NCBI GenBank assembly: GCA_964187785.1
Contig: OZ076409.1
Coordinates: 1,860,001-1,924,000, forward strand
Length of the DNA: 64,000 bases
Source: Amphiscolops sp. MND2022
Lineage: Eukaryota
Direction: 5' to 3'
The notes beneath the pieces were generated by a model that made no database searches, was not told the origin of the DNA, and saw nothing but the letters and a program-made list of their open reading frames with translations. This document shows, piece after piece, positions 6,676 through 57,855 of the stretch (positions are counted from its first letter, which is position 1; each line of letters begins with the position of its first letter). Both the position numbers and the translations under genes were made by a program.

Positions 6676-7733
6676 AAAATTGGTGCAATTTTTGTGCAAA
6701 TTTTGACAAAATCAGCCGTTTTTGTCAAAACGCACGTCTGAGGCAGGTGGAAATCACCTCTAGTGCTGCTAGCGACCTGACCAATCTCAATTTCACACCC
6801 TGTACCAATCTATCTGCATCGTGCAGAATTGACCATCAGTTGCGCAAAAAAATGACTGCACGTGAAATGCGGTGGCTCAAAAATGTTGTTTGGAGAAGTC
6901 AAAAAGTTGTGAAATTTACAATTTCTGGCCAAACTCGCTCTCTAGGCTTCCTAGCTACCTAAGGTCTTGTACGCGGGCGTAATCAGTGTCAATGTCCACG
7001 TACCATAAAAGCAAAATTGCCGGGGATGCCTGGTTGGATATTTGACGATCCGAAGTGACGAAAGTATGCTCTTACCAAGGGGCGTTTCCTGGAGTCTAAT
7101 TTCATAAAAATGTCAGTTTCTTCAAGTTAGGTAACAGCAGGGTGCTCAAAATGGACAAATTGTTGCAATTTGGTGCCGTGTGTGCAAAAATGAAAAATTT
7201 GGGTTGTGGGATATCCTGGAGATATTACACTACGCTCAACAAAAATTCGGTTTTTGCATCATTTTCACCCGATTTTTATGCAAACGGCGGCTATTTTTTC
7301 ACAGCGACTATTTCGACTTGTCTCAGAAACACCAGGTCAGGGTTCCCGCTATTTCTCGGCAACCTTTGGTGGGAATCAGTCGAGCTTTCCGCCTTAGCAA
7401 CCTTATATTCAGTATTAACGGAAATTAGGCAAGTGAAACCTGATAGGTTCCAACTAAGGTCTCTCGAAAAGTTTTCAAGCTGCAGTTTTTTACACTCAGG
7501 GAACAGTACAAATACTACGCAGTCTCACGTATTTTTCATTTCTCTGTTTTCAGGCGGTCCGAGCGTTTTCACAAGTAACGTAGCAAGGTGTCTCAATTTT
7601 TTTCAGGGGAATGGGGTTTTCAATAAGAATTTTTGTTTAAATATCGCTCAGGATTTTGGAGTCCTCCACCCAGCTCTATGTATTTGAAAAGAAATCAAAT
7701 GTTAACACTTTCGACTTGTATTGAGGAGTCCAA

Positions 7734-29203: not shown

Positions 29204-29494
29204 ACTATCAGGAACGAAGAAGAACCTGGTATGTACAGTCTGTTTTTGTTATCACAAATGCTCACAACAAAGCTCAATTACAGCGTCAACCAAGCAATTA
29301 AGCTTTGGACACAGCTGATTGAAAGAAAAGTTGGAGCTGAGGGTTTTTTAGATGTTTCTTTTAAAAGTAGTAACCAACTACAGTACTACGGTTGACGGGA
29401 CGAAACGACGATTTTAAAAAGGGGCGCGTTCCCGAAATTATGGTAATTCGTCCTGTTTATTGGTGCTCAATGAGCGAGGAAGGCCGAGGAGACC

Positions 29495-37320: not shown

Positions 37321-38781
37321 TTTTGCACCAGGTAACGATTCGAACTTGTTTAGCAGATAGAAACGAGGTTCGACAAACGTGAATAAGTTATCAAGAAATC
37401 ACCTTTTACTGTATTTCAGCGGGTAATAGTGTAATTCTTCGAAGGAGTAGTTAGCGTTCATATGGCACGTTATTTCTGTGCTCTTTTCGACCTGGCCCGT
37501 TGTCTAACCGGCGAAAAGCTCACGAGTTTTTGGAATTAATATGAGACCATTTATTCAAATGAGATCTTACTAAAAACTAGTCGAAACGCAGTAGTGAGAT
37601 GAAATTTAAAGAATCAGAAGTTCTTTAGTAGTTTCTTCTGCCAAGTATCCAGAAACGTTTCAAGTTTATCTCGAACTTTAAATTTTGAAACAGACCAAGT
37701 AAAAAAGTTTGGTACCAAAAACTGGAACTACCACGGATACGAAAAACATTTTGTTGCAGAAATGTTTTTCTGATTTAATGAGTGATTTTTTGTCGCAAAC
37801 TCTCTCAAGATAGATTTTGACCCGAGGACCCAGTAAGGGGAAAGTACCACCGTTCATAACTATTTCTTCAAATTCTAGGAGTGCTTATCTCTTTAAACTC
37901 ATCAAGTGTAAATTGCTAGCAGTAGCGCTGTCCTCAGAAGCCATATGCGCTCTAAGTGAGTATAGAATGGCTGTACATAGCATTCGTCTTGAGATCCACC
38001 CCATGGACACAGGAACTCTCGGATGGGCTCCTAATACCCCGGGCATCTTGTTACCATAATCTGACTGGTTCTGAGAGATTGTTGCTGAGAACCAAGGGTA
38101 TGCAAGATCCCACACCAAAAGCGCTCGTTACAGGTGTTCGGTTGATTCTTAATCCGAAGGCACAGTACAATCACTCTCTACCATATTTGGAGATAATATG
38201 ACTTCTCAAGATCATACATGATAGAATAGCGTCTAAAATCACCGTATTTTGGTAGAATAAGATCTAAAAACACTGTATTGCACTGGAGTAAGGTCTAAAA
38301 TAACTTTTTGAGAGAGATAGGATCCTTTTGTTGCGAAAGGCTAAGGTTGAGAATATGGAAATGGTATCATTCATCGCTCGCATAAATTTTTCTGATTAGG
38401 AACGACTTTTTTCAGAATTTCTTTTAGTGCAACGATGCAAATTTTGTAAGAGTTTTGTAAGATTTATGCATTTTTTGTACCAATTTCAGATGAAAATCGC
38501 AAATTTTGCAAGAATCTTGTAAGAGTTAGTGTCAAATAATGCATTTTCTAACAAGAGTTTTTGTAAGAATTTTGCAAAAGATGCGAATTTTTTCAACTAG
38601 GGTAATCATGCTAGCAAACAACCGTCTTCGAAATTGGAAGTTACTCTCATCATTGAAAAATATGGTAATGAACAGTCATAATATTTTTCATCATTCCATC
38701 ATCGATATCCATTTCCGGAAAAAAGTCTGGAACGAAAAAACAGCCGCTTGAAACAGAATCATGTTTCTCAAATACTGGGTA

Positions 38782-39497
38782 TGTAACGTCAAGCAAGTAA
38801 CGCACATACCAGAACTGGGACAATACTTAGGTTGCCTAGACAGGAGACCATAGTCCTATGACAAGCCTAAATACCAGTTTTTCGTCCCTAAAGGTCTCCT
38901 AGGGACTTTTCCAAAACACCGTGGAGACTCCTCTTATTAGAGCTCCGTGGCGACGTGCCGGCACACTCAAAGTCCGGACACGTCCCACAAGCATGTAAAA
39001 ACGTTCCTAAAGACTTCCTGCGGTCCTACATACTCCCGAGGTCCGAAAGCAGGGTTCTAGCTGAAATGCATTCTATTTCAGAAAATAACGTCTAAATACT
39101 CCATTACAAGGATCTGGCAGATCCGACATCATCATAAATCTGCAAATCAATACTAATGACATCAGAATTAATTAAGATTGGCACTTCTGGTATGTTTCTA
39201 TTGAATTCGCGATTCTCTTCATCTTCTTCGCTGTGGGATATCTGGATCTCAGAACATTTTTGTATTGAAAACGCACTTTTCTGGGGAGATGACACAAATC
39301 CGAGCATTTTTCTTGTTCTTCCTCATCGTGTCAGTGTCTTTTCTTCTTTTCTGGGTCGGGGTGAGGGTCGTCTCTCTTCTTTTTTGCTTCTTTTTTGATT
39401 TCAACGTCCTGCCAGGTCGGCCATTTTGATTCGCACACTTTCTGGTCCTTGATCGAATTTTTCATCGAAAATTTGGTGCTGACTGGTGGACGTTACA
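38782..39497 (-). repeat. Gypsy 3' LTR (PPT GGGGAGGA at ~39498-39505)
   Basis: Matches 56956-57670 with about three substitutions and one indel seen. Confidence 0.97.
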
Positions 39498-39955
39498 TCC
39501 TCCCCGGGCCACTGTTTGTCGTCCTCGGTAAACGGAGAAGGATGCATCACTACTTACAAATGGTTTCAGCAACGTGATTTTCAGTTTTTCTCTTAGATCT
39601 TACTACTTCAAAATTTCGATTTAGCACTTTTTATTTTAGCACTTTTCGATCATTCTGGGACAAAAAAAATCAGTTTCTTTAAAAATTCTTACCATTCGTT
39701 CCAGGCTAGTTTAAAAGTTCTTTTAAGGGTGGTTACACTTAGCCAGAGAAGCGGAGAAGTTTTTACTAAAACTTTAATTGCACTTGTTTTGGCAGTTAGG
39801 CAGGCACCAAGCTGGGACCTACCCACCGGGTAGTTACACTAGCAAAATAATGTTAATACTTTGTTAACTAAAATAGCACTTATTGTTTTGATAACTGCTG
39901 AGGCGTAATACGTTTTTGGTTAGTTTGGTTTGATTGGCCGAGTTCAGTATTTGTT

Positions 39956-42900
39956 TCATTCATGGCCAGTGTCATCCATAGTAGTATCGTCATCTTGCAG
40001 CACTTCATTTAATGATACGGCCAATACTTCCGATGACGGCAGGTTTTGCTGACTCAAGCTAGGTAGTTCGTTCAATTCTAAATCGATATCAGCTGCTAGT
40101 GTTCTCGTCAACGACGTGGGCGCGATTTCCAAAGCTTCTAGCGGCACTGTCTGATCATTGGAAGTAGCATTGGTGGTGTTGACTGTGGTTGGGTTAGCTG
40201 TTTCGGGGTTATGGATGGATACATCGGTGTTGGTTGGTGCTGCAGCTATTGCAATGCTGATTAGACTTGAGATTGACACCATGGAAGTTGATGTATTTTC
40301 AGCAGTAGAAACCTCCTCGTGCCCTGCTGCCTGTCTCGTTGAGGTCGAGCCCGCTGGGCTTAGTTCTGGCAGCTGGTCTGCGAGGTCTTGGCGTCCATAT
40401 CGGAAAAATATTTCTTTGAAAGTCCCAATTGCATTTGAATAACTGTCATATACGGTATTTCCTTCGTCCCTCTGCTTGGTTATCAGACTCATGAAGATTT
40501 CCATGGCCATTTGTGGATTGCTCGGCATCTCTTCATTCAGGGGCAAGGTCTTTCTATTGGGTTCTTTTGCGATTTTCGGAACTGTCGCCTTCAGAGTTTG
40601 AAATCCTTGGTGGATCATTCTGTCCACTATCGGCGGGTCTGCCCAATGCGTAGTGTCGGACAGGATTTTGGCTGTATCGGCTTGCGGTGTCGCTCGAGGG
40701 TTGTACATTCGGGATACATCTTGTATTACTCGATGCTGGAGTCTTTCTGGTGTGGAGCCTTCTCTTCGTCCACCCAGGCGTCGGTCCGCATTGGTTAGTA
40801 CTCGGAGAATACCTGGCTCATCCCAGCTGGCGAAGCCTTGCAATGCTCCAGTGCTGGGTTCTACAGGAGCGTGCAACCATTCTACTGGATGAAGTTCTAA
40901 CGACATAGGAACAGCGCACCGCGCTCTGGCTCGGATCAGGGCACTGAAATTGTACTGGACCTGTTTCTTGTCTTTAATAATCGTGTATGCCATTGGTGGT
41001 CGGAAGTTGGCAAAATTGCGCACTAGCATTTGAAAATCTGGTTGTCTGGCGTCGTCTTCAGGGTCCACGAAATGTAGAATAGATAATGTAGGTGCTTTTG
41101 CGGCAACTCTAAGCGGCTGTGTAGGGTATCTCAGGGCCATCATTAAACCGAATATAGGCCAGACTATGGGTGCGATCATGGGGACTAGATCTTCAGTTTC
41201 TACCAACATGAGGCTGGCTATCTGCGACGGGAATAGGAAACCTGGCAGGTTATTGCTATTGGGTTTTTGACTCAGCCAGTCGTCTAAAGTGCTCATCACG
41301 CCAGAGACATTGACCCAGGCTGAGTAAACCCAAGCCAATAGTGTTTCGATATTCTCGGCGAGCTGGCCGCGCAACTTCAAAGCGCCTGCAGGGTCCAAGG
41401 TGTTTAGAATGGCGTTAATCCAATTCCGCTGGTTCTTGGTGAATATGAGAAAACTGAGTAGACAGGAGTTGGCTTTAGCTAGGACCAATCTCTGCACCAG
41501 GTGCACTGGGCCCTTGTAGACGGCGCCTAGACCAACGGCCATCAAGTAGGCCAAGATCTCAGCAATTGTGGCCCTCTGCATTGCTTCTACATACAGTCTA
41601 ACTTGCTGCTCATCTAAGCTGCTTTCACGCTGCACCATCGTTGGTACCCAAAATGGCGAGATATTATACAAGAATATGGGGAAGGGAATTCCATGACTTT
41701 CTGCTGTTTCATTCAAGGTCACTTGCAGCGTCTCATGCCAAGAGTGGTAAGAATGCTCTGGGTTCATTTGGTTTTCTTGCGCTGTCTTCTGAGCTAATAC
41801 TGTTAACAATACCAGGGTGGGGGAAACCATGTTGGGCTTTGCGTCGATCGCTTGTATCGCCACTGGAAAAACGGTCGCGTCGGTCCGAGTTTGTTTTATT
41901 CCTTCTGTCTTCTTGAAGAGAGCTAGCAGCTCTTTGTGGAATTTAGCGTTGTGCGTCCTCTCATCTAGCGTTGACTCATCTCTCCTTTCAAACCATCCGT
42001 TGTCAATCATGTTTGCCCGTTCCTTTTCATTAGGCTCCTTGACTCGGCGTACCCCATTCTCATCAAAGGAGCGGTGCGCCATTTGCATGCCAAAGTCAAA
42101 GGCAGTAGCATCATCGGCCAACAACTGAGAGTTTCCCTCGTATCCGGTACAAGCCTGCAAGGCTTTCGAGATTTCCGCCAAGAATGCAGAATAAGAGTTC
42201 TCACCCGGACGCCAGGTTGTGGCACTCACTCTCAGGTTCGGTGCTATTATATAGAATGACAAATTCTGTGAGTAGGATGCTTCTGATACTAGATACAACA
42301 TTTGCTGGAGTGGTTTAGGCAAGTATACGTATCCGGGGGCGACACAAAGACTACCCCTACGACGGGCTTCATTCGCTGCACCCGCCTGATCACATTCCTC
42401 ATTGCTTCGACGTACGCAACTACCTCTCCTGTCATCACTTCTTCCGTCAGTCTACGGTTGCCTTCTTCAAAGTATTTCAGCGTTCCTCGAAGAGCCAAGT
42501 GGTCAATCATATTGCTATATATCAGGATCGGAGGGAATGGAATTGTCTCTGCGTGGTTGACGGTGGGACCGAAGACCTTGCAGGTCACCTCGGCCTCTAG
42601 CGATGTGCAGGGCAAGTTCATCACGCGAACATCCATCAGGGTGTTGTTCATGTTCGCCGTTGCTTTCATCGTAGAGTCCATGAACAAGGCAATCCTTGTC
42701 TTTTGCAACATCTCTTTGCCCATGGGGAGCAAGGTTGTTACGTCCCTCATGAAATCACGGCTTCTCATTAGTTGGTCATCGTATCTTGCCGGTCGTTGTA
42801 CGGCTAATTTTACTTTGGAGGGGAGTGGTCTCACCAATGATGACTTGTCTTTATGAAGATTCTCCCTTACTCTCTCGAACCAGGGAGGAATGCGATTCAG

Positions 42901-44196
42901 AAGGAGTGTTGGCTTCTTTACGGGCCTCAAGTAATGCATTCCGATCGTTGCTTTTTCGAGATTCTCCACATCCTCTGGGTTTCCTTTACTGGTAGCTGTT
43001 TCGAATTTCTGCACAACCAATCCTGGGTCTGGATTCTCTGATTTCGCTTCTCGCTGCAGACGCACCGCGTCTCTGGCAGCAATGTCAAGCTGTCGTGCCT
43101 CTGTCTGCGATAGGAGCTCATTAGAGAATCGCACTCGCCTAGGCTCCGGCTGTTGCACTGGGGAAGGATTCGGGCTGGAGTTCGTTTCATCCGTATTGGC
43201 TAAGTCTCTGGCCCTTTTCTTTTGGACTAGCTGTTCGATCTTGCTTTGTTCCTTTCGATTCAATACGTCGCGGAGATCGATAGGGGCCTTGGCTGCTTGC
43301 CTTTCTGCTATTTCTTACTTTTTCTGTTGTTCTTGGCGTTCTGGGTAGGCCTGAAAACCTATTAGGTGATGTGGGTCCTGCGACGTTGAAGGTAGCAAGG
43401 CATCGTAAGAGTCTTGAAATCCGATCAAACCTGTCATGATGGGCACGTCGAGCGGGTTCCGCTTCACTATGGTTCTCGGTCTTTGGCTTGTATCTTGGGT
43501 GGCATCTTCAGTGTTCTGCGCGCTCGTGTGCGCTTCTTCTACCCCTTCTCCCCTGAAAGAAGAAGGGAGCATGAGTTTGTTGTTCTCTTCCAGGCGCCTG
43601 ACACTAATTGGGGCGGATGATGGTGGGAGTGTCAATATCGGCGGAGGTACTGTTGGCAAAAGGCATGTGAATTGCTGTGTAGGCGGTGCTTGCGTTGATT
43701 GACAGTCGCGGGCGCTCTCGGGGGCAGTTATCGACGATATTGCAGGTGCTTGCGTCAGGTTCGTTTGAAGACGTCGTTGCTGCTCCATGGGGGGCCTATT
43801 AGGCTCGCCATATCTCAGGTGCGATCTGTGGCCATCAAAAGGGTGGGTGAGATCATGACCTCGCCACGCGCCATTGTGGAATTCCGCAGTTCTGCGGTAA
43901 GATCAAATTCCAATTGATATGGAGAGGGTAAAGTCCGGATGTATTTCGAGAGACAGCATTTGAGCAATTAGTATGGCAATCCCGGTCACCAGTGATGGAG
44001 AAGGGGCCTCTTGTAGGGTCGATTGGACCAGACCAAGCTGGTCAATTCTGGTTTGAGATTCGCCGACAGGCAGCGAGGACACGGGAGGTTCTTGCGTGGC
44101 AATCGTCGGCGGTTGTGATTGGTCCATTCTGCTGGTGCTCGGTTGCGAGCTTGTTGTTGATGGAGTTGGCATGCGGGTTCTAGCCGATTGATCCAT
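39956..44196 (-). pseudogene. Gypsy third ORF (~1400 aa if joined; segments 43903-44247, 43315-43788, 42289-43263, 39956-42322) with an SGNH-like domain
   Basis: Contiguous minus-strand coding segments. 43315 is an in-frame stop, and a 1-nt loss in the G run at ~42335 joins VSPP to GYVYLPKPLQ. No signal peptide or clear Env features seen. Confidence 0.75.
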
Positions 44197-44515
44197 TAAA
44201 GAGATGGGTAGCACCTTGGATAAGTGACTATGGTGGATATACTGCAAATATGATGATATACGACTGGCTGCGTCAAGTGCATGGGAATTGACAGGACTGA
44301 ACTAGAAAAAAGAAAACAACAGACGTCAATTTGAGCTAAAATACTATTGCTGATGAATGCAATTGATATGATAAACATTAAAAGACAATAAGATAAAACA
44401 GATTCGACAATCCACGTTAAAACCTAGTTCAGGGATTGACTCAAACAACACATATGCTAAGAACAGGACGAGTGGCCTCCCTTATTGCCATTTTTTTCTT
44501 TTGTGCCACAGTGAT

Positions 44516-46235
44516 TCAATCAAATTTGGATTTTACATGGTTGTGGTGTGTCCTCACTAACGCAATTGATACATACACCCTATCATGGAGGACTATGTCG
44601 ATATTGGAATCAATGAAATGATCTTTCAACATTGAATACCAAGCTGGTAGCATGTTGATTGATCTTTCAGGGTCATAGATGGGAAGATTGATACGGGTGA
44701 TTTGTGCTCGTGTGAGCTTCTGCACAAGGTCTATCAGGCACAGATGTAGCACTTCATGTAAAATGGGGTGTTTACTAGAGGCTCTGGTGATTAGCAGGAA
44801 CATTTCGTTATTCCACGGTGTTGCCGGTGATCTGGTGAGGTGAATAGCCTTTCCTACGGCTGGGCGTAGTCGGAAAATTTCTTCCTGGCCATATTCCCTG
44901 ATGACGTAGCGCGCCATTGCTGAATGTGACAGAAGATCTACCGGACAGCATATTACTACGGTACGCCTGGCTTGCAAAATGTCAGTTTCTTCGTAATAAA
45001 TCCATGATAGATAGTTCAGTTTGATCTTCGGATGCGTTATCAATAGTTTTCCTGTGACTGTGCTTTGATTGTCTTGAATTGGTGTGAGATGATCCAAAAT
45101 GGCCTTACGGTCTTGCCACACTGTTCTGCGTAAAGGTCTGTCTCCCAAGTTCGTGCAAGACCAATCGTGAATTACGGAGAGTGCTTCCAGCACGGTCGCT
45201 GGGTTCTCAAATGTATACGTGTGTTTGTCTAACAGGCGTATTTTGGCTGGGCGACAAAAGATGATAGCTAGTAGCTGTAACCAATGTTGACTGAGGAATT
45301 TCCCACGATAAATATCTGCTAGATGGAAGCATAAGGTGTCCTCGAACTCTACAAGCGTACGCAAATTTTCCAAGCAAATCAGTAAAGTTCCTGGAGTCAC
45401 TAGTGATGTTTCGTCCAAAGAGGTGACCAAAAGCCACCAACCAGCCGTTGGGTGATACACATCTCCAGGAGGGGATGTTACACCATATTGCTGCCATAGT
45501 CTTCGCGCGGTGATACAGCGGACCATTGCTATTCGTGTGTCACTTGGTTCTATTCTTCCAAACATCATCGATGGTGGGAGTGGGGGTATGATTGCGGTCA
45601 ACGTGAATTCTAATCCACTTTTTTCGTGCCATGTCCATTCCTTAAATCGGTAGGTGGGGCAGTCTGATGGAGATGTTTCTTGCATGGCTTTTAGTGTGGT
45701 TTCCAGGGGTGGGACCACGGCTGGTCCAATGCTCGAATAGGTCTTTTCCACGGTAATCACAACATGATGTACTTGTGGAACCTCTTGGTCCTTAGCTTGT
45801 ATGTTTCGGATGTGTTGCATGTGGTCTTCCTTTGTTTCGGTAACAGCTGTGTCTGGGGCAGGAGCGTCTACTCCCCGGGCCAATCGCTTGTCCGGTGGTT
45901 TTCCACTAATTAGGTTGACGCAACTACGGTTACGGGAACCACATGTTCCGCAGCGATATCTAGGAGTTCTATTGCGTCGCAGCAAACAGGGTGGTGCTCG
46001 TGAGGTTGTTGTTTGTTCCGCTTCTGGTTGCTCTGATGATAAACTTTCTGCGATGTTGGGTAGTGTCATTGCACGTTCCAAGGTTTGAGATTGTGCTCTG
46101 GTTCGCAATCTGCCTCTCGATCTGATGTACAGTCGGTGCGTGCTTGCAAGTGCTCTGCTTGATGAGTTGGCACTTCCTCTTCTACGATTTGGAGGTCTGC
46201 CTCTTGGCCTGCCTCTTCTACTCGCGGTTCTCCCG
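44516..46235 (-). pseudogene. Pol C-terminal extension: AT-hook, CxxC motif and two TARG1/OARD1-like macrodomains
   Basis: Frame is open upstream of 46108 through RRGRPRGRPP. Then YRCGTCG, and a C-terminus YYEETDIL..VICCPVDL..AMAR..FLLITR..LHLCL..INLP..LKDHF..SNIDIVLH that matches the TARG1 pattern. Confidence 0.75.
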
Positions 46236-47559
46236 ATGATGGCGATGTTTCCATGCTGTGTCCGGGTTCTGGAATTTCTCTGTCAGTTCTTTCTTGGGGT
46301 TCGGGTTCCTCGATAGTTTGTAGTCCTGCCGAGCTACCAGCTCGAGAACTGAGCTGTGGAAAATTGCTCAATGTGTCGGTTAAAGCTGGGTTTGAGAGCA
46401 ATGGTGCTGATGTTCCTGATGGCGAGGGTATCAGACTTGGTGTTGGTTCTGGCCTGACTTCCTCTTGATCTGAATAAAGTGGTTCTAAATCGTCGATATC
46501 AGGGTAGATCATTGGTTGTTGTGGCTCTTCAATGGGTTGACCCATTTGTTCTTGGTCGGATTCCGACTCAGAAGGGTATCCAAAATGACTGAATCGTCTT
46601 CGAGGGATTCCCCGTTCCAAAGCAGACTGAGTACGTGTTTGAATCGTGCTTGGGGGAACGGGCGCGGTCGGTTCCATCTCGAATGATGCCTCTGGCAGTT
46701 GTTCTGGAAGAAATGAGTCACGTGATATGTCTGACGTTATTTCCTCATTACTTTCCTCCACGTATGGGTCTGCGATGATGGCAACATTCTGGTCTAACCC
46801 AAAGGGTTGATGTGCCGCCCAATCCCACGGCGCAGGCACATGCTTCTTCAGGCGTTCGAAGTGAACCTTTTGTCCTGCATCCAAAACGTATAATCTTCCA
46901 TCTTGTAATACATCTGTGACCTTATGAGGTCCACGCCAGGCACGAAGGAGTTTGCGGGTGCCACCTTTAGGAATTATGTGGCAGAAAACCCAAACAGCAT
47001 CACCCACCGCGTGAGCTTTTGCTTTCAAATGCTTGTCGAACTTCTGTTTTTGTCGTATTTGCGCCTGGTGTGTGTTTCGGCGAACAAGTTCGTGGATTTC
47101 TTGTTGTAGTAGTTCAAGTAGGTGCTCCACAAATTCTTCTTTGGACTCAAACTCTCGCGCTGCGAATTCTGGGTATATAAACGAGAGTGGAATGGATTTT
47201 TCTGCGCCATGTTGGAGCATATACGGGGAAAATCCGGTCGTTGCATGTCTGGTTGAATTATATGCACCCAAGACTCCGTCTATGTGTTCATCCCAGTCAA
47301 GCATTCTTCGAGACGTATAGACTCGGAGCAAGGTCAGTAATGTTCGGTTTTGACGTTCCACTAAACTATTGCCTCTCGGATGAGCTGGAGTAGACGTTAT
47401 TTTGGTTACTTGCGAGGCTTTCATCAGTTGTTGAGCAATCTCAGCAGTAAAGTTGGTGGCATTGTCTGATTGCATCCTGGCAGGAGTGCCGTGTCTTGCA
47501 AACCATTTGTTCAGGATGATCTTTGCAGTCGTCTGGGCGTCATATTCGTCGTGTGCCAT
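46066..47559 (-). pseudogene. pol: Integrase core plus acidic/Pro-rich linker
   Basis: QSDNATNF, VERQNRTL, GAYNSTRHATTGFSPY, WRGPHKV. Confidence 0.95.
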
Positions 47560-50500
47560 TGGATTGCCTCTGCAAATTTAGTGAAATGGTCGATGACGAC
47601 TAGCAATCCATTATTTCCTGACGTTGTTTTGCACAACTTCAAATAGTCGAACTGCACCAGGTCATTAAAGTAGCTGCTGTTGATACTTTGTAACGGATAA
47701 CAGGGATTCCCAGCGGGATGTTTCGTCTGTTGGAATGTTAAGCAGTGCTTAATATAATTGACAACATCACGCTTGATGCCTGGCCAAGTGTGGCGCTCCT
47801 GGATTCTTGCCAACACTTTACCAACGCCTTGGTGTCCTGACTCGTCATGCGCTCTGTACAAGATTTCGTGTTGGTATAGCTGGGGCATGACGATCATACA
47901 CGGTCGTATGTGCATCGCGCGTTGCTGCGGAATGTAGTAGACACACAAGATATCATTCTGGTTCAGGAACAGTAAGTCTTTCTTCTGGTGAAAGTACCGT
48001 TTGGCAAAGTGCTGCACGTCTTCGGGGAACAACGTATCCTCTAATGGCTCGTTCTTCATGAGTTTCTTCAGCGCTAGCAGATGTACATCTCTGTTTTGAG
48101 CTAGATGAAGATCTTTCAATCCGCGCATTGTTGACTGATGCTCGTGAAGCTCAGTCCCGACTAGCCTGAGGACGTGAGCTTGTTCCTGACACTGCGTAGG
48201 CAATCTACGCAGTGCTGGGTCACGTTGGGTGGTGTCCAGACGTGCCGCTGGAACTTTGGTTGTTACGCTAAGGATACAATTCGGTCTGTCGTCTTCGGTC
48301 AAAGTCGGAGTTGTTTCCCATTGCACCTGTGGGTACCATGGTATGGAACTCAAGGACGGGTCTGAGGTTAGGTCTTCTTTTGGTGGCTTTTTCAAAATGT
48401 ACAGCAGTGGAAGTTGTGCTCGAGCTTCCGGTGGAAGCTCTGGATGGTTTGGAATAAATTTTCCATGTTTGTCGATATAAGGCACAGTGGGGAGTTCTTC
48501 GTAGTCTTTCTGGGGCATGAAGCTGAATCCCTTGCTCACTTCTGGTAGAGTTTCCACGATCTTCTCCCGATGTACGTAGTCATTGGTCCTTTTGCTAAGA
48601 CCATCCACATTTCTATGTTGTGTGCACGGTCTGTGGATCGTCTTGAAATGATATTGGTCGAGGCGCGCAATCCAGCGTCCAATCATGGCTTGATCCATTG
48701 AATATGTCTTCAGCCACGAGAGAGCCTGGTTGTCCACACGCAGCGTGAATTCCCGACCTGCAAGGTAGGAATGAAATTTCTCGATGAAATAGAATACTGC
48801 ATACATTTCCAGCTTCGGGGCGCCATAATTCATTTGTGTTTTAGTCAGTGACTTGCTGCCGTAAACAATAGGACGAAGAATGGTTTTCCCATTGTATTGT
48901 TGCTCTTGGTGCAGTATGCCGGCTATAGCAACTGCACTGGCATCCGTGTCTAGAACGAAACGTCCCTCTTCGTTAGGCGCTGCCAAAGCTGTGGCATCGA
49001 CCAATGCCTGCTTTACTGCATCGAACGCTTCTTGGTGTCTTTCTTTCCAGTAGAAGTGTTGGTTCTTCCTTAACAACTCCTGCATAGGTTGCACCTTAGC
49101 AGCATGAAAAGGAATGAAATCTCGGTAGTAGTTCGCAAATCCAATTAAGCTCTGTAATTCTTCTCTGTTTCTGGGGGGCATCCATTCTTGGATTTTGCTA
49201 ACAGCAGCCGGGTCAGGCTTTATGCCTTCGGCCGAGACTACTCTTCCGAGGTACTTGGTTTCAGTGCGCATGAAGTCACATTTCTCTGCTCGCATTTCGA
49301 GACCTGCCTCTCTGAGACACTCGAACACTTCTCTGATTCTTTCCAAGTGGTCTTCAATGGTTTCTGTCGCAATCACTATGTCATCTATGTATGCCATGAC
49401 AACGCTTCCATGTCGTTGTTGGATCTTCTGTAGAGCTCTCGTGATCGATCGCTGAAAAGTGGCCGATGCATTGCATAGCCCGAAGGGCATGCGCCGCCAT
49501 TCAAACAGGCCAAGTTCACACGCGAACGCCGTTTTTCTGCGATCACGCTTCTTCAGTGGAATTTGCCAAAAGGCCCACGCCAAATCGATGCTCGTGAAGA
49601 TCTTTGCATTCCCAATCCTCGAGAGGATTTCATCGATTCTGGGTAGTGGAAATGCGTCCTTCACTGGTACATCATTTAGCGGGCGGAAGTCACAGCTCGC
49701 CTGATTTCTTTTTCACCATGACTATGCCACTGGCCCACGGAAAGTAGGAGGGTTGTATCAGACCAAGGGCCAGCAAGTTTTGCACTTCTTGATTGGCTTT
49801 CGCCGCCTTGTCAGGGGACGTTCGCCTAGCTCCTTCTCGGTGTGGTATAGCCTTCGGCTCTAGCTCTATCTTGTGCTTTGCAATCTTACACCTACCTATG
49901 TCAGACTTATTTTTCATGAATAGGTCTTCATACTCATTTAATATAGTTTCTAACTTGTTTCTCGCCTCTTCCCCCCATGAAGAAAGGACGGAAGAGAGGT
50001 CAGGGCCTGGGATTGCTTTTAGCAGCTGTGGATCTGTCCTTTTGCGCTTTTCATTATCTGATAAACCTGCCTCAGACGGTTCGGTCGAAGATAAAAAATT
50101 TTGGGCAAAGGAACTGAATTCTGAACTGGTGTCCATATCAAAGTTTCTATGTATTTGATTTACATGTTCGGCAGAAAGTTTCGAAGCTTCACCTTCAGTT
50201 TGCATAAGAACAGAGTTCAATACAAAAGTGGTAAGCGCCGCTTTGCCAATAACAGTTTGTGCTTTGATTTTCACCCGTTCTTTATCAGTTTGGTTAGGGA
50301 TGGCTAAAAATACTATACCTCCTTCTCCCACAGAAGTCAGTGTATCTTTTGAAACAAAGACTGAACTGGACTTTATGCTACATGACTGGACCGTTACATT
50401 ACGAAACAGGAAAATGTCAAGTTGTTGCCTGATGATTTTCGCGCGCACAATCTTCCTTTCGAATGGACCTAGTATTACGTCTTCAGTGGAAACTACAAAC

Positions 50501-50613
50501 GATGGATCGTGGTCGCTTACCTCATGAGTGGCTTTAAAGATTCGAGGTGTTTTGGGATCGCGGATAGTCACTTTCATTGCTGTCAGGTCCACCAACACGT
50601 TGTATGTGCGCAA
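47511..50613 (-). pseudogene. pol: Reverse transcriptase, RNase H and integrase Zn finger (lesion near 49690)
   Basis: PWASGIVMVKKK, DAFPLPRID, MPFGLCNA, YIDD, TDASAVAIAGIL, DNQALSWL, HDESGHQG. Confidence 0.96.
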
Positions 50614-50912
50614 GAAATTACGACCCAGGAGGAAATCCTCCCAATACGATCGGCTATGACTACAAAGTTGGTCTTCAGAGTATTTCCGCCGAGCTGAAAG
50701 CTTACATCTTCGGCTATACCCACGGTGGTGATGCTTTTGCCATTGGCAGCGAAGAGTTCAACGTCATATGGTGATAGGCTCAGCGTGTGCTGGGAAGCAA
50801 TCTTCTTGTACGCACTCAATGAAAGGATGGAAACTCCCGATCCGGTGTCAATCATGCCGAAAAGTGGTATCGGTTTTTGCAGAGGAGTTCCGAATGCTAC
50901 TACTAGCGAGGC
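50583..50912 (-). pseudogene. Retropepsin aspartic protease (frameshifted near its C-terminus)
   Basis: MIDTGSGVSIL; in frame with the gag ORF across a single TGA at 50913-50915. Confidence 0.9.
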
Positions 50913-53900
50913 TCACTCATCAATCTGGGCTTCTCCTTGTGCATCTTGCACTCCAATGCTATAACAACGCAGTTCTTGCCTGCCCAGATATAGGCCTTGC
51001 GGAAAGTGTCCTTCCAGGACAACAATCGCATCAAACCTCATGTCCACACCATCAACCGTGATCGCTATGGGGACTGGCGCGATTGTCTTCACTCTCTGTA
51101 TCTGGGCCAGCTTGGTCTCATCATTCCTGGTAAAGTGGGGTAGTGGTCGCGAAGCTATCGTCAAACTGATATTGCGGCACAGTTCTTCTTTCAATTGTGC
51201 TAATGTGAGATTTGGACGCGCCTTTTGTTCCGCGGATAACAACAGATGGATGGATATTAGTGTTTCAGTACAGTCAGGCGCTGGTGCCTCAAGTGTCGTC
51301 AAGATTTGTTTCTCACCACAAGTTACAACCACAGGGCGTGATGGGCCTCCGTCTTCTGAAGTCGAGATCACCCTTATTTGATCCTCTGAATCGCAAAAGT
51401 CTGTTGAGTTTGCCACCGGGGCGTACCACGTCGCTTTTACTTGTTCTTCCGTTGCAACATTGTGAGGCGTCATACAATCAGATGCCACGTGGCCTACATG
51501 ACCACAATTAACACAAAATGCTGATGTTCCTTGTTCTGGTAGGGTTGCGGGCATTAAGTCATCATTCATGCCGCGTGGGATCGATGGGCACACCCATTCT
51601 CCAGCTGTGTTCGTGCGACACGAATTAACTATTTGCTCTACTGGTTTCCGTGCTCGGTCTTTCAAAGGACAATCAGCTGCAAAGTGTGAAGGATCTCCAC
51701 AGTTGAAACACGTTCGCTGCGGTTGTTGTCGGAAAGCTGGAGGCTGTTGTGGGAGTTGCTGGGCGTTGGGCGCTTGAGGTGCTTGTGCCTGTGCTTGGTT
51801 TTGCGGGTTCGCTGCGACAGGCGGCTGTTGTTGTTGTTGTGGTGCAGGATAATTTTCCGAACGTGTCGAACCACGCATACGCAGGTATTGTTGTACCGTG
51901 AATCGTAAGGCCTCCACAGTTGGGGGTGTGTCTACATACTGTTCCTGTGCATACATGAGTGCAAGGTTTCGTTTCAACTCATAGCTTCGTACCCCTTCGA
52001 TGAACTTCTGCATAATTTCATAGCGCCTCACCGCAACTTCCTCGTTGGGAAAACCTTGGCTGCGCAAACCTTCCAATGCGTCAAGGTATTGCATGTAGTC
52101 TTCATCCGGGGACTGATTACGTGTAGGGAACTGTTGTTGTATTTGGATCTTATTAGATCCTGTTCCAAATCTTCGTGCTAGCAGCGCGAAGACTTTTTCA
52201 TCAGTATCGCGTTCCGCTTCTGATTTATTTGTAATATAGTCCCGTGCTTCATTTTGTAGGAACTCCACAATGGTCCATGCTCTGTCTAAAGGAGTGTCTT
52301 TTGCATGGGCTTTTTCCAGGTAACGCCTCATCAGCATTAGCCAGCCATCCACTATTCCATCGCGTGTGCCACGACACTTGGTAGGTTTGTTCTTGGATTC
52401 TTTGGCTGCTAATAATGGCCCCAGACCTTTGGACATCGCGGTGGTTATTGCTTCCGCCAACGCTTGGCTGTGTATAGCGTTTGGAGCATTGTCTTTGTCC
52501 TTGGCAGCTCCTTCCACCGTTCCAGTGTTCAGGTTCCTTCTCGAGATTGTCTTCCTTTGCGTGCTAGAGGCCAATGGCCGTGATTGGTCGTTACTATGGG
52601 GTAACATTGAGCGTTTTGTGCCAAGCATTGACGAAACAGCAGTTTGATATTCGGTACTTCCTGATGCTGTTTTCATGTTACTATGCATTTGGTCGCTGGC
52701 CGCTGAGTAATAATGTCCAGTCGTTGAGGCACCTCTAGCATATGGGTCGAATGAAGGGGGGCCTGATATGTCGCAGCGCTGTACTTCAGTTTGACTGGCT
52801 GTTGACAATTGGGTTTTCATCGGCACCTTCTTGTACGTTGCGGGTGGTTGTAACTTTGGGTGTTTGTCTGATCCGGTTTCGTCACACATTGGCGTTTGGA
52901 AACTTCTCGATAGGAGGGGTGCTGAATAGGAAACGCACTCGTAGATGGTATGTCTGCAGGGTTTGGTGCCACCGGCACGGGTGAGGGACGGTTTGGTATC
53001 GTCGCCACTACGGTCTTCACCCCTAGGGTTAAATCCTGGACCGTAGTCATGAGGTCCACCATGCGTTTGTCGACATCTAAGTCTCTGTGGTGCATCATTT
53101 CGGACATGTGTTTTAGGCGCTCATCCGCTTGCTGATCTCTTTGCACCATTATTGCCGTCATCTCCGATATACGTTTTTCCGTCAGGTCCTTGACTGATGC
53201 CACGGACGTTTCTATCTTGCCCTGGTTGACTCGTCCTTCCATCTTGATCTCACTCACCTCCTTTCGTAACTCTTCTACTTCCATCACCAGAACTTCTGCC
53301 CGACGGACATGGTCAGTGTTTTCCTGGGCTAACTTTATTTGGACTCGTTTCAATTGTTCCATACTATGTCCAAAATCTTCTCGTATGGCTTCAGTTTCTT
53401 TGATACCTCTGGCGATCGTCGAATTTGGGGATGCTGCACTGCCGGCATCGGAGTGTTGGGGCGTTGCCGTGCGTTCCAGCAATGGTGGTGTAGTGGAGGC
53501 ATAATTCTGGAGAGTCACTCCTTTTCTGGTCTTCCGCTTTCCCGGCTGACTTTCCGAAGGAGCTATCGCAGTGTCACCCAGTGTATTTCTGCTACTATCA
53601 AACACTGGTACTCCGGAACCCAGCGGGTCCGCACTTGTGCCCAAGTGAGGGGTGATTTCTCCCGAAGTCATGCCCACATTCATATTGTCAACCCACTTAC
53701 TGATATTCGAGCTAGTAGCTACTTCTCTATTCGAGTTCGGCCAGTCCTCGGTAACAATCACGGAAGTGGTCAGAGGAAGCCATACGTTGGTATGGTTTAT
53801 GGGAGTTTCATTAGCAAGTTCGGTGCTATCAAAGGACATCTTTGAGGAATTTGCTTGGCCTGTATGCGCAATTTGCGAATTTTGCTCAATGTTAGACACG

Positions 53901-53983
53901 TTATCTGACATTACGTCGTCTAAAAACAGGTCGGCGATCATATCCAGCGGTGCTATTTCAGCTTGTGTACTCAGGGTATGCAA
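50913..53983 (-). pseudogene. gag: Gag region (coiled-coil 52817-53983, frameshift, capsid, two CCHC knuckles, degenerate protease-like domain)
   Basis: WLMLMRRYL...L..RFG...RNQSPDEDYMQY capsid pattern; knuckles CFNCGDPSHFAADC and CVNCGHVGHVASDC. Confidence 0.9.
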
Positions 53984-56921
53984 CTCTTCTATGTTGTTCG
54001 CGAACGGGTTGTAGCTTGAAATTCACTAGACTCCAATGATGTCTCACTCACGAATAACAAATATTCCCACTCACTCAAACTCATTTTTGCTTGCAGTTTT
54101 TGCAGCTCAACTAAATTAGATTTTTTTCCGTCTTTTACTCACTCCTTCTCTTCAACAAATTGAATTGAAGGCAACTCAAAATGGAAGTTTTGATATCCCT
54201 TTCTCAGATATTCTAACTAAACTGTCGTACTATTAAGTTCTGGAGTTTGTAGCTCGTGATCGCCCTCTTGATTCTATTTCGAGATCAGCTGACTGTCATA
54301 AACTTCACACTCCTAATTACATGCACTAACTCAAGATTACATGCACTGGTGTTAGTCACCACTAATCAGAACAGAAAGGTTTGTTTCCCCACTAACTGGA
54401 GATAGTTATTCTACGCAAATTCAAAGTTAAGCTTTTTAAGTTTTTTTTACTGTTACTCACACTAAACTACGCTTTATCTAGCCACAGGCTATGTGGTCGG
54501 GATAAGTAAAGGCTTTGGCGCGCTATCAGAACTTTGCAGAGATTTATTCAAGAAATCACCGCGCTTTTCTTCTGGGAGCGTACACTTTGTCACTCGTACT
54601 GACTTTTAATAGGAGAGCACCTGTGGTGTTGCTACAACAAGGGGTGTTCGGAACTAGACCTTGGGGGTGAGTAGGTGTTAGGACATTTTCAAACAAGAGA
54701 GTTATCGTAATCTGATCGTAGCACGATCAATGGAAACACAGTTCTTTACAATTTCATATGCTACTATACTCAATTTTCTGTCTCGAGACGCACCGCGTCC
54801 ACTATCCACGTCTCCTAGAGAACTCCTAATTGCGTTTTAGCTCTCTCGCGTCATTTCTCAGTCGAGGCAAACGTGAATGCACCTATCAGTTCGCATTAAG
54901 GTGACCCTGGTGGTCGTTGGGAGAGAAAATACAATTTTTGTGTTTTGCACTCCTATGTCTCGTAGACAGCTTTTTGACAAACCCAAGGTTTTAGGGTTGA
55001 GCTAGCTCTATTCCGATTACTTCAATGGGACGTGCTATGGATGCCTGGTGTAGAATTAGGGTCGCTTAAACCTTCACTTGCAACTACACCTACGAAAAGT
55101 GTATAATTTTTCGCAAAATTTCTCAAAATCGGCAATTCTTTCCCCAAAGTGCACGCCTGGGGAAGGTGATTATCACTTCTGGAGCTAGTAGCGACCTGAA
55201 AAATTAACACGGTATACTACTGTAACCAAATCGTGGGAAAATTACCTCCGATTGCGCCAAAATTGATTATACGTGACTTGGGGTCGCTTCAGAATGTTGT
55301 TTGAAGAATCGACTATATTGTGAAATTTACAAAAGTCTGTCAAACTCGCCTTCTAGGCTTCCTAGCTACCTGAAATTTTGTATGCGAGCGTGAATTTTGC
55401 CCACGTAACAGAAAAACAAAATAGCGGGGTGCCCAGGTCAATATTCCGCAATCCGAGTTGACAAAACTATGATGTACCCTATTAGTCACTTCCTGGGGCC
55501 AAAATTCACAAAAATGTCAATTTCTCCAAATTGGACAGTAGCAAGCTGCTCAAAATGCACAAATCGTCGGGCTCTAGTGCTGTGTGTACGAAAATGCAAG
55601 AATTTTAGTGCTGGGATACTCCGAAGGTGTTGCACTATGCTCAACTAAAATACGATTTTTTTTGACAGTTTCGTACAATTTTTGAGCAAAACTGCGGCTA
55701 AGATTTCTCAATCACTAGTAATGGTAGCGCTACGAAAATTACACCACTAACGTAACTTTTTGCGGTCTACATGATGGTGCAATTCGTTTTGGGCTACTCC
55801 TGCTAGGAGAGATTTCGACTTGTCTCAGGGACACTACTCCAGTGTTCCGAAAATGTCGCGAAAACAACGCGTTTTCGGCCATTTCTCAGCAACTATTGGT
55901 TGGAATTACTCGCGGTTTTCTGCGTTTGCAACGTTATACCCTATACTAACGGATAATAGGCAAGCAAAACCTGGCAGAGTCCAAATAAGGTCTCTCAAAC
56001 TAACTTTCAAGTTGCACCTTTGACACTCTGGAAACAATGTGAAAAATACGTATTTTCGCTAGGAACTTTTTATTTCTCGGTTCCCAGATGTTCGGGATGG
56101 TTTTAAAAGTACAGTAGGAAGGCGTGACAACTTTATTTAGGGGAGTGGGGTTATTTCAATTATTACTTTTGATGTTATTACTCTCAGGTCTATGGGGTCC
56201 TCTTGTTTCTCAATGTTTCAACAATTTAGCCCAGCAAATTTTTCTGTTCCTGACCTAGCAGGTCTGATGGAACGTTTTTTTTGTATTCCCACTGGCCGTA
56301 TCCTTTTCCACTAGATTTCAACTTTCAACACCTCAAAAATCGGTATTTGAGCTATATATGGTGTTGTTTTCAAGGTTTCCGCGCTCAAATTTTGAATCAA
56401 CTGGTCCAAACACCCACAGGGTATTTTCCCCAGTTAATTTTAGTGGGAACAGGCTTGGGAATATGCTTTTTGGGCCGATTATTAGAAAGAATTAGCAATA
56501 TAACCCGATTGACGTGGGTATACGGCAACTACAGGGGTACTGGAGGTGTGATGTCGGAGGTGCTCACACACTGTCGTCAGCTAATTGGGGCCTTCAGCAC
56601 TCGTCCTCCCGGTCCCCATACATTGCTAATTTACTAAAACGGAGCTACAAAACCCTTTAAAACCAGTTCCGGATAGGCTGGATTAACATTTTCAACAGGT
56701 GTTATCAAAATACAAGGGGTACACTGTCTGAAATCGTCGATTTTCGGTTTCAGACCCCGGAAATACGCAGGACACGCAGGAAAAACACTAGTACAAGGCC
56801 CACAGGGCTAGAATAGGGCAATAAAAACAATCTAGGACTCTCCAACAAGTTTTCCTAGATCCAGACCTAGCAGGGCCGGAAAGCAGGAAAAACTCCAATT
56901 ATGGCGAAAAGATGGAAAAAG

Positions 56922-56939
56922 GTCCCTTGTGGGGCGCCA
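56922..56939 (-). promoter_or_regulatory. tRNA-Lys-like primer-binding site, 16 nt from the LTR
   Basis: TGGCGCCCCACAAGGGAC resembles the Lys3-type PBS TGGCGCCCGAACAGGGAC. Confidence 0.75.
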
Positions 56940-56955
56940 TAAAAACTACTCTAGA

Positions 56956-57670
56956 TGTAACGTCAAGCAAGTAACGCACATACCAGAACTGGGACAATAC
57001 TTAGGTTGCCTAGACAGGAGACCATAGTCCTATGACAAGCCTAAATACCAGTTTTCGTCCCTAAAGGTCTCCTAGGGACTTTTCCAAAACACCGTGGAGA
57101 CTCCTCTTATTAGAGCTCCGTGGCGACGTGCCGGCACACTCAAAGTCCGGACACGTCCCACAAGCATGTAAAAACGTTCCTAAAAACTTCCTGCGGTCCT
57201 ACATACTCCCGAGGTCCGAAAGCAGGGTTCTAGCTGAAATGCATTCTATTTCAGAAAATAACGTCTAAATACTCCATTACAAGGATCTGGCAGATCCGAC
57301 ATCATCATAAATCTGCAAATCAATACTAATGACATCAGAATTAATTAAGATTGGCACTTCTGGTATGTTTCTATTGAATTCGCGATTCTCTTCATCTTCT
57401 TCGCTGTGGGATATCTGGATCTCAGAACATTTTTGTATTGAAAACGCACTTTTCTGGGGAGATGACACAAATCCGAGCATTTTTCTTGTTCTTCCTCATC
57501 GTGTCAGTGTCTTTTCTTCTTTTCTGGGTCGGGGTGGGGGTCGTCTCTCTTCTTTTTTGCTTCTTTTTTGATTTCAACGACCTGCCAGGTCGGCCATTTT
57601 GATTCGCACACTTTCTGGTCCTTGATCGAATTTTTCATCGAAAATTTGGTGCTGACTGGTGGACGTTACA
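56956..57670 (-). repeat. Gypsy 5' LTR
   Basis: Matches 38782-39497. Confidence 0.97.
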
Positions 57671-57855
57671 GTAGGTTCAATTTTTGGTTGCCGATTCTGG
57701 TTGTTTATGTTTTATTATTTCTTTTTTAATTTTTATTTTTAACGGAATTTATTTTTTAACATTCAATGTGACATCAAGGAATGATATGTTTCAACATTCA
57801 ATGCATACTTTGAACTTTTGTCAATCCTTTGACAATTATTTTTACACAGATCTTA

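Follow-up and report, generated by a model that had tools for sequence, protein, structure and literature searches.

A predicted pair of macrodomain-like units in the Pol tail of a Ty3/Gypsy-type retrotransposon from Amphiscolops sp. MND2022

Add-ons at the C-terminus of integrases, among them chromodomains and host-factor-binding tails, set landing sites and also serve to retarget integrating vectors. The chromoviral module directs integration to marked chromatin (Gao et al. 2008, as cited in bioRxiv 10.1101/2021.11.30.470311), and LEDGF/p75, which pairs a chromatin-reader domain with AT-hooks, holds the integration complex on chromatin (PMC5053271). The accessible sections of a survey of transposable element (TE) fusions (bioRxiv 10.1101/2021.11.30.470311) list Chromo, PHD, SNF2, SET and other domains, with no Macro fusion among them. 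The ALC1-like class of macrodomains includes both readers and erasers (PMC7050489). ADP-ribosylation has so far been tied to viruses only through RNA-virus replicases. The present analysis concerns a stretch of 64,000 nucleotides from Amphiscolops sp. MND2022 (assembly GCA_964187785.1, contig OZ076409.1, positions 1,860,001 to 1,924,000), hereafter the window, whose minus strand carries an 18.9-kb Ty3/Gypsy-type long terminal repeat (LTR) retrotransposon. Its Pol protein ends in a tail with an AT-hook, a Cys motif and two domains predicted to resemble the macrodomain of TARG1. It is very probable that this is a genuine, selected tandem macro tail of Pol.

The tail as the C-terminus of Gag-Pol

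The 588-aa frame at 44519-46282 encodes the C-terminal end of the Gag-Pol polyprotein. In the window copy the integrase frame (46069-47577) ends ...METSPSSGEPRV and the tail frame reads ...IIGRTASRRGRPRGRPP, which places a break at ~46231-46234. Natural intact copies pass through the junction in one frame, ...SPSSGRTASRRGRPRGRPP..., and the two fetched copies whose tails were read have ...SPSSGRTA[ST][RK]RGRPRGRPP... over it. A single Pol open reading frame (ORF) interrupted here by a frameshift at ~46232 had been postulated in the first-pass annotation of this stretch, and the intact copies bear it out.

The 1.07-Gb genome was searched with the last 394 tail residues, and 105 of the 4465 first-look candidates were scored. 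All 105 match the tail at E <= 3.5e-241. The 394-amino acid (aa) match is free of stops in 89 of them, and in 30 it is contained in an open frame of at least 2900 aa. Each of the three long-ORF copies that were fetched has a single ORF (3111, 2999 or 3245 aa) that spans gag through integrase into the tail and ends at the tail's stop codon. Moreover, integrase or reverse transcriptase (RT) Pfam domains are joined to the tail in seven of 19 longer database relatives, down to 65% identity. Since single intact ORFs and database relatives alike join the tail to integrase or RT, the tail is part of Pol.

The tail is under purifying selection. The ratio of nonsynonymous to synonymous substitution rates (dN/dS, Nei-Gojobori) was determined between two subfamilies whose tails are 88% identical (dS 0.6-0.8). 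The ratio is 0.08 in the core of domain 1, 0.06 in domain 2, 0.15 in the AT-hook segment, 0.19 in the Cys motif region and 0.12 in the linker. The corresponding values are 0.01 in RT, 0.02-0.03 in integrase, 0.08 in both protease and RNase H, and 0.10-0.12 in gag. Within the window's subfamily the median is 0.29 (range 0.09-0.51; 28 pairs from 8 copies), as would be expected if neutral decay after insertion contributes. The first-pass annotation had named three outcomes that would run counter to it, namely no macrodomain fold, an ORF separate from pol, and neutral evolution. None of the three holds, since a macro fold is found (see below), the ORF belongs to pol and selection is purifying.

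The tail is not confined to these two subfamilies. A total of 286 relatives were found at E <= 1e-3 among 1.84 billion representatives, and relatives also occur in other assemblies of public sequence. In the same genome, three further families with open frames of 3049, 3193 and 1377 aa have tails that differ strongly from that of the window, relatives below 50% identity spanning 28-42%. In all three, integrase is followed by linker, GRGRP hook, C-x2-C-x4-C-x-C, domain 1 and domain 2, in this order. None of the ten clusters looked up has a protein name, and the 19 longer and 120 listed near-length relatives, all from a single source, carry neither a name nor a Pfam domain for the tail. No RNA or DNA sequencing run is listed for the tail.

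The family is very abundant in this genome (thousands of first-look candidates in 1.07 Gb) and has been recently active. Carrying the module is thus no bar to high transposition success. From its LTR sequences, the second subfamily, which bears the tail and lacks the second gene (ORF2; see below), looks very young: the two LTRs of one copy (one of them at L012:8029-8751) are 100% identical over 723 nt, and all 40 LTR matches scored, out of 4060 first-look candidates, share 99-100% identity with the LTR of this copy.

Predicted folds and pocket residues of the tail

The integrase core and C-terminal region are followed by an acidic, Ser/Pro-rich linker of ~180 aa, which is disordered. Then come an AT-hook in a basic stretch, the Cys motif, domain 1 and domain 2 (Table 1). 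The signature of an AT-hook is an R-G-R-P core with basic flanks. Both are present here, RRGRPRGRPP lying within a segment of 91 residues (tail residues 17-107) with a net charge of +16. The hook is recognised by its motif, and the Pfam AT_hook model has no match in the window tail. The RGRP motif recurs in 29 of 33 longer relatives and in all three other families read in the same genome, and the Cys pattern recurs in 31 of the 33. The longer relatives without hook or Cys pattern are fragments that start downstream. In the window copy the third Cys is replaced by Arg (CGTCGSRNRSC), intact copies having CGTCGSRNCSC. The pattern is possibly that of a zinc knuckle, and zinc binding can be proposed only tentatively since the segment has a low predicted local distance difference test score (pLDDT) in the fold model. 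Hook and Cys motif had both been spotted in the first-pass annotation, and the relatives show that both are conserved.

The tail alignment comprised the query and 119 of the best 150 relatives (excluded were 17 rows restricted to the N-terminal part, and 14 others). Modelling of the last 394 tail residues gave an overall pLDDT of 76.9, with confident blocks at residues 40-205 and 230-375 of the model. For domain 2, the eight best chains in a Foldseek search of the PDB are all TARG1 (E 9.4e-10 to 1.9e-8), and DarG comes next. The target-normalised template modelling (TM) scores to TARG1 chains are 0.77-0.87, and the model fits TARG1 with a root mean square deviation (rmsd) of 1.9 A over 137 of 141 residues. 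The model thus has the three-layer alpha/beta/alpha fold of macrodomains and superposes on solved ones. Viral macrodomains in BFVD also match this fold (93 matches at E <= 0.001). Domain 2 is therefore predicted to be a well-preserved macrodomain of the ALC1-like class, the nearest structures being TARG1, DarG and SCO6735.

At the level of sequence, a profile of the whole tail retrieves TARG1 from the PDB as the five best distinct sequences, at E 0.036-0.045. In the ESM Atlas nothing scores above 0.81, and the Macro and ThsA_Macro clusters, at 0.77, are a lead only. A single-sequence phmmer search of the PDB with the tail returns just a GH15-related protein (E 0.056). Several results speak against the macrodomain assignment. 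A profile restricted to domain 2 aligns with nearly all of TARG1, but at E 0.22, and two unrelated proteins, a chorismate mutase and a ribose-transport protein, come out slightly ahead of it. No Pfam family matches the window tail at E <= 0.1, and Macro (PF01661) touches just one of 120 relatives, at E 0.3. As for domain 1, it is macro-like by predicted structure only, and its profile finds nothing in the PDB. Sequence support is thus marginal, and the assignment of domain 2 depends mainly on the predicted structure.

For domain 1, a stretch of 310 residues that starts at the Cys motif and takes in the whole domain was modelled with an alignment of 106 rows. This AF2 model (m1b2a593d3ce8) has a pLDDT of 78.5 and a predicted TM score (pTM) of 0.72. 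It is structured at its residues 53-300, the Cys motif region being disordered, and most of the 10-residue blocks between residues 71 and 280 have a mean pLDDT of 81-97, with one at 76. The top eight Foldseek matches of the core are again all TARG1, at E 1.5e-4 to 1.5e-3, weaker than for domain 2. Domain 1 would accordingly be a degenerate macro-like domain with extensions, weaker than domain 2 but consistent with it. A match of the domain-1 profile to HDAC4 (E 0.23) was dismissed as spurious. In the motif comparison, Ser or Ala stands at the position equivalent to Lys84 of TARG1.

The extensions of domain 1 deserve mention in their own right. The N-terminal one (45586-45829) consists of a helix and beta hairpins, and the C-terminal one (45086-45223) of a strand and two helices. 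About 85 residues before the core and about 45 after it are confidently folded. Both extensions lie outside all matches of the fold search, and distant relatives share them (motif EKtY..Er...Ple).

The two domains had been delimited in the first-pass annotation as repeats at ~45600-45225 and ~45000-44570. These limits coincide with the domain 1 core and with domain 2, and Foldseek on the predicted models finds both macro-like with TARG1 closest, less strongly for the former. Compared by BLASTP, domains 1 and 2 reach no better than E 2, with just the strand-helix motif WLLVT/FLLIT aligned. An hhalign match between the two alignments, at 95% probability, was rejected as an artefact, because some domain-1 rows reach into domain 2 and the matched region falls outside the domain-1 query, past its end. 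With no detectable similarity between the two, a tandem duplication is not supported by sequence.

How far does domain 2 retain the pocket of TARG1? In hidden Markov model (HMM) alignments to TARG1 chains, LITK is replaced by LITR, Lys84 corresponding to Arg500 of the tail (44783-44785). PRIGCGLD is replaced by PIYDPERS, GCGLD becoming DPERS at 44660-44674 with Ser for the Asp at position 125. The GCG loop thus reads DPE, and MGAGIA reads SHSAMA. In TARG1 the glycine-rich loops MGAGIA and GCG hold the diphosphate (on the diphosphate-binding loop, PMC7050489). Domain 2 has neither the catalytic Lys84 of a TARG1-type hydrolase nor the catalytic acid at position 125, nor these glycine-rich loops. 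It must be noted that position 125 is Asp in PMC9411070, as in the PDB chain, and is written Glu125 in PMC7050489.

Arg occupies the Lys84 position in at least 54 of the 58 relatives that span the site, and Lys in one. D-x-E-R persists in 35 of 48. Among the 44 relatives with less than 50% identity, the positions still conserved are the motifs iTRas, HfPi.DpER and LHdRvyVsIa in domain 2, and MvRCITAD, wWLLvTA, CLE.LRT and D.yRGK in domain 1. Judging by the alignments, the replaced active-site residues are family traits, which recur in relatives of as little as 30% identity, and not decay of the window copy. A Schiff base needs a primary amine, and Arg cannot form one. With Arg in place of Lys84, the covalent Lys mechanism of TARG1 (PMC7050489, PMC9411070) is therefore not available. 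SCO6735, an ALC1-like macrodomain, lacks both catalytic residues of TARG1 yet is an active hydrolase, for which Gln85 at the Lys position is required (PMC7050489, PMC9411070). Because of this precedent, catalysis by another route may be possible. The altered LITK and PRIGCGLD motifs had been read correctly in the first-pass annotation, and its doubt about hydrolase activity stands as far as Lys84 and Asp125 are concerned, both being replaced. In view of SCO6735, it has to be softened.

The element, its copies and its neighbours

The element has LTRs with TG..CA ends, a target-site duplication and tracts resembling a primer-binding site (PBS) and a polypurine tract (PPT), and Pfam searches of the window copy and an intact copy give the gene order gag (CCHC), protease, RT, RNase H, integrase (Table 1). 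These are the features of Ty3/Gypsy-type LTR elements. The two LTRs of the window copy are 99.44% identical over 717 aligned columns. The GC content is 0.46-0.50 in the interior of the element versus 0.35-0.41 in the flanks. In the intact copy, zf-CCHC is found at position 708, the protease at ~995-1076, RVT_1 at 1376-1536, RNase H at 1602-1734, Integrase_H2C2 at ~1990 and rve at ~2065-2160. Asp_protease_2 (E 0.0025) lies under the Pfam cut-off there, as does rve (E 2.2e-06, 28.3 bits, against a cut-off of 32.6 bits). The window copy is defective, with ORF1 in at least six pieces owing to five frame changes and one stop, and some of these breaks may be assembly errors.

Table 1. Features of the retrotransposon in the window (all on the minus strand)
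Feature	Position in window	Strand	Remarks
Target-site duplication TAC	57671-57673 (upstream copy); 38779-38781 (downstream copy)	-	from sequence ends
5' LTR	56956-57670	-	715 nt; TGTAACG...CGTTACA
PBS-like sequence TGGCGCCCCACAAGGGACC	56921-56939	-	starts 16 nt after 5' LTR
N-terminal region and Gag, CCHC zinc knuckles	50916-54022	-	zf-CCHC E 2.8e-09; two overlapping frames, 52820-54022 and 50916-53120
Protease region	49693-50912	-	frames 50586-50912 and 49693-50757; preceded by in-frame stop 50913-50915; one frame change
RT, RNase H, integrase zinc finger	47514-49712	-	RVT_1 2.9e-34, RT_RNaseH_2 7.2e-27, Integrase_H2C2 1.9e-16
Integrase core and C-terminal part, then acidic Ser/Pro-rich linker	46069-47577	-	rve E 0.0016 in this cut frame
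Frame change, integrase/tail	46231-46234	-	this copy; intact copies read through
Tail frame	44519-46282	-	588 aa open; stop at 44516-44518
AT-hook core RRGRPRGRPP	46190-46219	-	motif; inside very basic segment
Cys motif C-x2-C-x4-C-x-C	45920-45952	-	pattern; possible zinc knuckle
Domain 1, whole folded unit	45086-45829	-	tail residues 152-399; predicted N-terminal helix and beta extension, macro-like core, C-terminal helices
Domain 1, macro-like core	45224-45580	-	tail residues 235-353; predicted structure
Domain 2, TARG1-like macrodomain	44576-45013	-	tail residues 424-569; predicted structure
ORF2 remnant (second gene)	39959-44301	-	two stops and one frame change here; 1450 aa in intact copy
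PPT-like purine run GGGGAGGA	39498-39505	-	directly before 3' LTR
3' LTR	38782-39497	-	716 nt; TGTAACG...CGTTACA ends

The PBS-like sequence TGGCGCCCC does not start directly at the LTR end but 16 nt past it. The same sequence stands behind the 5' LTRs of other copies, and it would serve as the primer-binding site. The leader is very long: the long ORF starts ~2.9 kb after the 5' LTR (window 53851-56955, minus strand), and the intervening sequence holds no ORF of at least 80 aa on the element's strand.

A 3-bp target-site duplication is typical of the family, although Gypsy-type elements rarely have one as short as this. Of 13 solo-LTR loci (L024-L048), 11 show it exactly, one has 4 bp and one has no duplication. 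It is also found at three LTR pairs in addition to the window copy (TAC). The second subfamily has a 6-bp match, ATGAAA, in place of 3 bp (a single copy, L011+L012).

Downstream of the Pol tail, the window's subfamily has ORF2, which is intact in another copy (L010:3870-8219). No Pfam family was found in either the window remnant or the intact ORF2, and the Atlas leads, at 0.78 or less, are Codanin-1, TH1 and Nckap1-like helical proteins. ORF2 does not resemble an envelope protein, the N-terminal hydrophobic segment being absent and just one weak hydrophobic window present. ORF2 is absent from the other, 14.8-kb subfamily, in which ~1.3 kb separate the Pol stop from the 3' LTR.

Elsewhere in the window, a BEL/Pao retrotransposon with an intact ORF of 2151 aa lies at 22796-29248 on the minus strand (Peptidase_A17 2.9e-41, DUF1759, DUF5641, Integrase_H2C2, RVT_1). 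BEL/Pao elements are not known outside metazoans, and this one accordingly points to an animal host. Two ORFs of equal length (195 aa), both without a Pfam match, lie on the plus strand at 7100-7684 and 14947-15531, 7847 bases apart. The window was also scanned for Rfam families and tRNAs, with no matches.

Possible roles and comparison with known systems

By analogy with the targeting modules described above, we tentatively favour binding or tethering as the job of the tail, over catalysis or a task unrelated to ADP-ribose. The tail would travel with integrase into the pre-integration complex and act there as a built-in, cis-encoded chromatin tether. The AT-hook segment would bind AT-rich DNA, and the macro pair would recognise a mark of the ADP-ribose type, or some other ligand on chromatin, without the Schiff-base chemistry of TARG1. 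In this way the tail could pick or stabilise the integration site, like the chromoviral chromodomain or, in trans, LEDGF/p75 for HIV integrase. The macro-like domains are neutral to acidic, the positive charge residing in the basic segment. The host flanks are 69% AT in the nearest 15 nt and 64% over 60 nt, versus 61% in the window background (n = 41 flanks).

A number of points weigh against such a tether. The AT excess of the flanks is small, as is the sample, and the 3-bp target-site duplications have no consensus. Both glycine loops being replaced, ADP-ribose binding is uncertain. The conserved polar residues of the active site (T-R, D-P-E-R) would also suit an enzyme, and SCO6735 is active without the Lys/Asp dyad. 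Finally, the protease may cut the tail off integrase.

It is also possible, if doubtful, that in a lineage of giant Gypsy elements of animals an ADP-ribose module in the form of a TARG1/ALC1-class macro pair was captured and fused to integrase, coupling integration to ADP-ribosylation. This could happen in two ways. The pre-integration complex might be guided to chromatin carrying poly(ADP-ribose) (PARylated chromatin), for instance at DNA breaks. Or else cDNA ends or the complex might be freed of ADP-ribose that poly(ADP-ribose) polymerases (PARPs) of the host have attached. If true, this would be the first retrotransposon-encoded ADP-ribose reader or eraser and a new integration-targeting principle. 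With a macro pair at this place, integration would be tied to ADP-ribosylation, which signals DNA damage and acts in antiviral defence. The first-pass annotation had suggested an ADP-ribose-reading module for integration targeting or else a decoy against host PARP defence, and either may apply.

Alternatively, domain 2 might be an active hydrolase of ADP-ribosyl groups that works by a mechanism other than that of TARG1. Carried on integrase, it would remove ADP-ribose put by host PARPs on element proteins or on cDNA ends or bases, and so serve counter-defence like the macrodomains of RNA viruses. This seems to us rather unlikely. The nearest structures, TARG1, DarG and SCO6735, are all hydrolases, and the viral macrodomains in BFVD share the fold. 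TARG1 reverses PARP3-made ADP-ribosylation of DNA ends (PMC5725667), and enzymes of its class strip thymidine-linked ADP-ribose from DNA (PMC9411070). T-R and D-P-E-R are conserved and, as SCO6735 needs Gln85 and neither of the two TARG1 residues, the invariant Arg could still serve catalysis. Such an enzyme would, however, have to work with Arg for Lys84, Ser for Asp125 and both Gly-rich loops replaced, two acidic residues falling in the diphosphate loop of TARG1. Domain 1, with Ser or Ala at the Lys position, looks non-catalytic. The same replacements, together with the lack of a Pfam Macro match, the large domain 1 extensions of undescribed fold and a strong conservation of a family-specific motif set, would suit macro folds that have lost their original ligand and now act as scaffolds for protein contacts independently of ADP-ribose, be it in integrase multimerisation, in binding a host factor or in particle assembly. 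This is nevertheless unlikely, as the most conserved motifs of domain 2 are its pocket positions (T-R, D-P-E-R, C-P-A-D-L), which suggests that a small-ligand site has been kept, and as the fit to TARG1 is very close.

Degenerate ADP-ribose motifs in tandem macro-like domains also recall the SUD domains of coronavirus nsp3, and the pair might bind structures of cDNA or RNA. We regard this as improbable, because the macro-like domains are neutral to acidic (isoelectric points of 7.2-7.9 in the window copy and 4.8-7.3 in the three other families); SUD matches, moreover, rank far below TARG1. Highly improbable is a passenger or an artefact, that is, a captured host fragment that drifts neutrally, a separate gene or a mis-assembly. 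It is true that ORF1 of the window copy is broken by at least five frame changes and a stop, that one knuckle Cys is lost and that no RNA run is listed for the tail. But the 30 scored copies with the tail in very long open frames, the low dN/dS of the macro-like domains between subfamilies (0.06-0.08) and an architecture kept at ~28-42% identity in other families, as well as in other assemblies, all argue otherwise.

In comparison with described proteins, the tail is closest in fold to human TARG1/OARD1 (C6orf130). The identity is just 13-18%, however, with Lys84 replaced by Arg, Asp125 by Ser and the loops exchanged. Human TARG1 is a stand-alone protein of 152 aa, whereas here tandem domains are fused to a retrotransposon integrase and, by contrast to TARG1, are not detected by Pfam. 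Since the macro fold is found and both PF01661 and the TARG1 features fail, the tail is best filed as a macro-fold module near the ALC1-like class and not as a TARG1 orthologue. DarG and SCO6735 are bacterial antitoxins or free enzymes that act on thymidine-linked ADP-ribose in single-stranded DNA. SCO6735 has Gln at the catalytic Lys position, where the tail has Arg, and no DarT-like partner was seen in the element.

The macro folds of alphaviruses, coronaviruses and rubella virus (nsP3/nsp3) likewise reside in viral genomes, but they are of the MacroD type and lie within replicase polyproteins. For fish epsilon-like endogenous retroviruses, PMC4977317 cites Basta et al. 2009 as reporting an additional ORF with a macro domain, which by this description is not an integrase fusion. 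A full-text literature search, with most subscription journals outside its coverage, found no macrodomain fused to the integrase of an LTR retrotransposon. Since Pfam is blind to the domains described here, domain-based surveys of TE fusions would miss them.

LEDGF/p75 is a host protein with a PWWP reader that acts in trans through its integrase-binding domain. In the tail, hook and putative reader are instead provided in cis, within Pol. Chromoviruses are the same type of element and have their module in the same place, the C-terminus of integrase. No Chromo family was found in Pfam scans of the window ORFs or of the intact ORF, and the present element is therefore no chromovirus by this measure. 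Where chromoviruses have a chromodomain, the tail has a hook, a Cys knuckle and two macro-like domains in ~570 aa. Targeting modules at the integrase C-terminus are thus known, and what appears to be new is a macro pair as the accessory module at this place.

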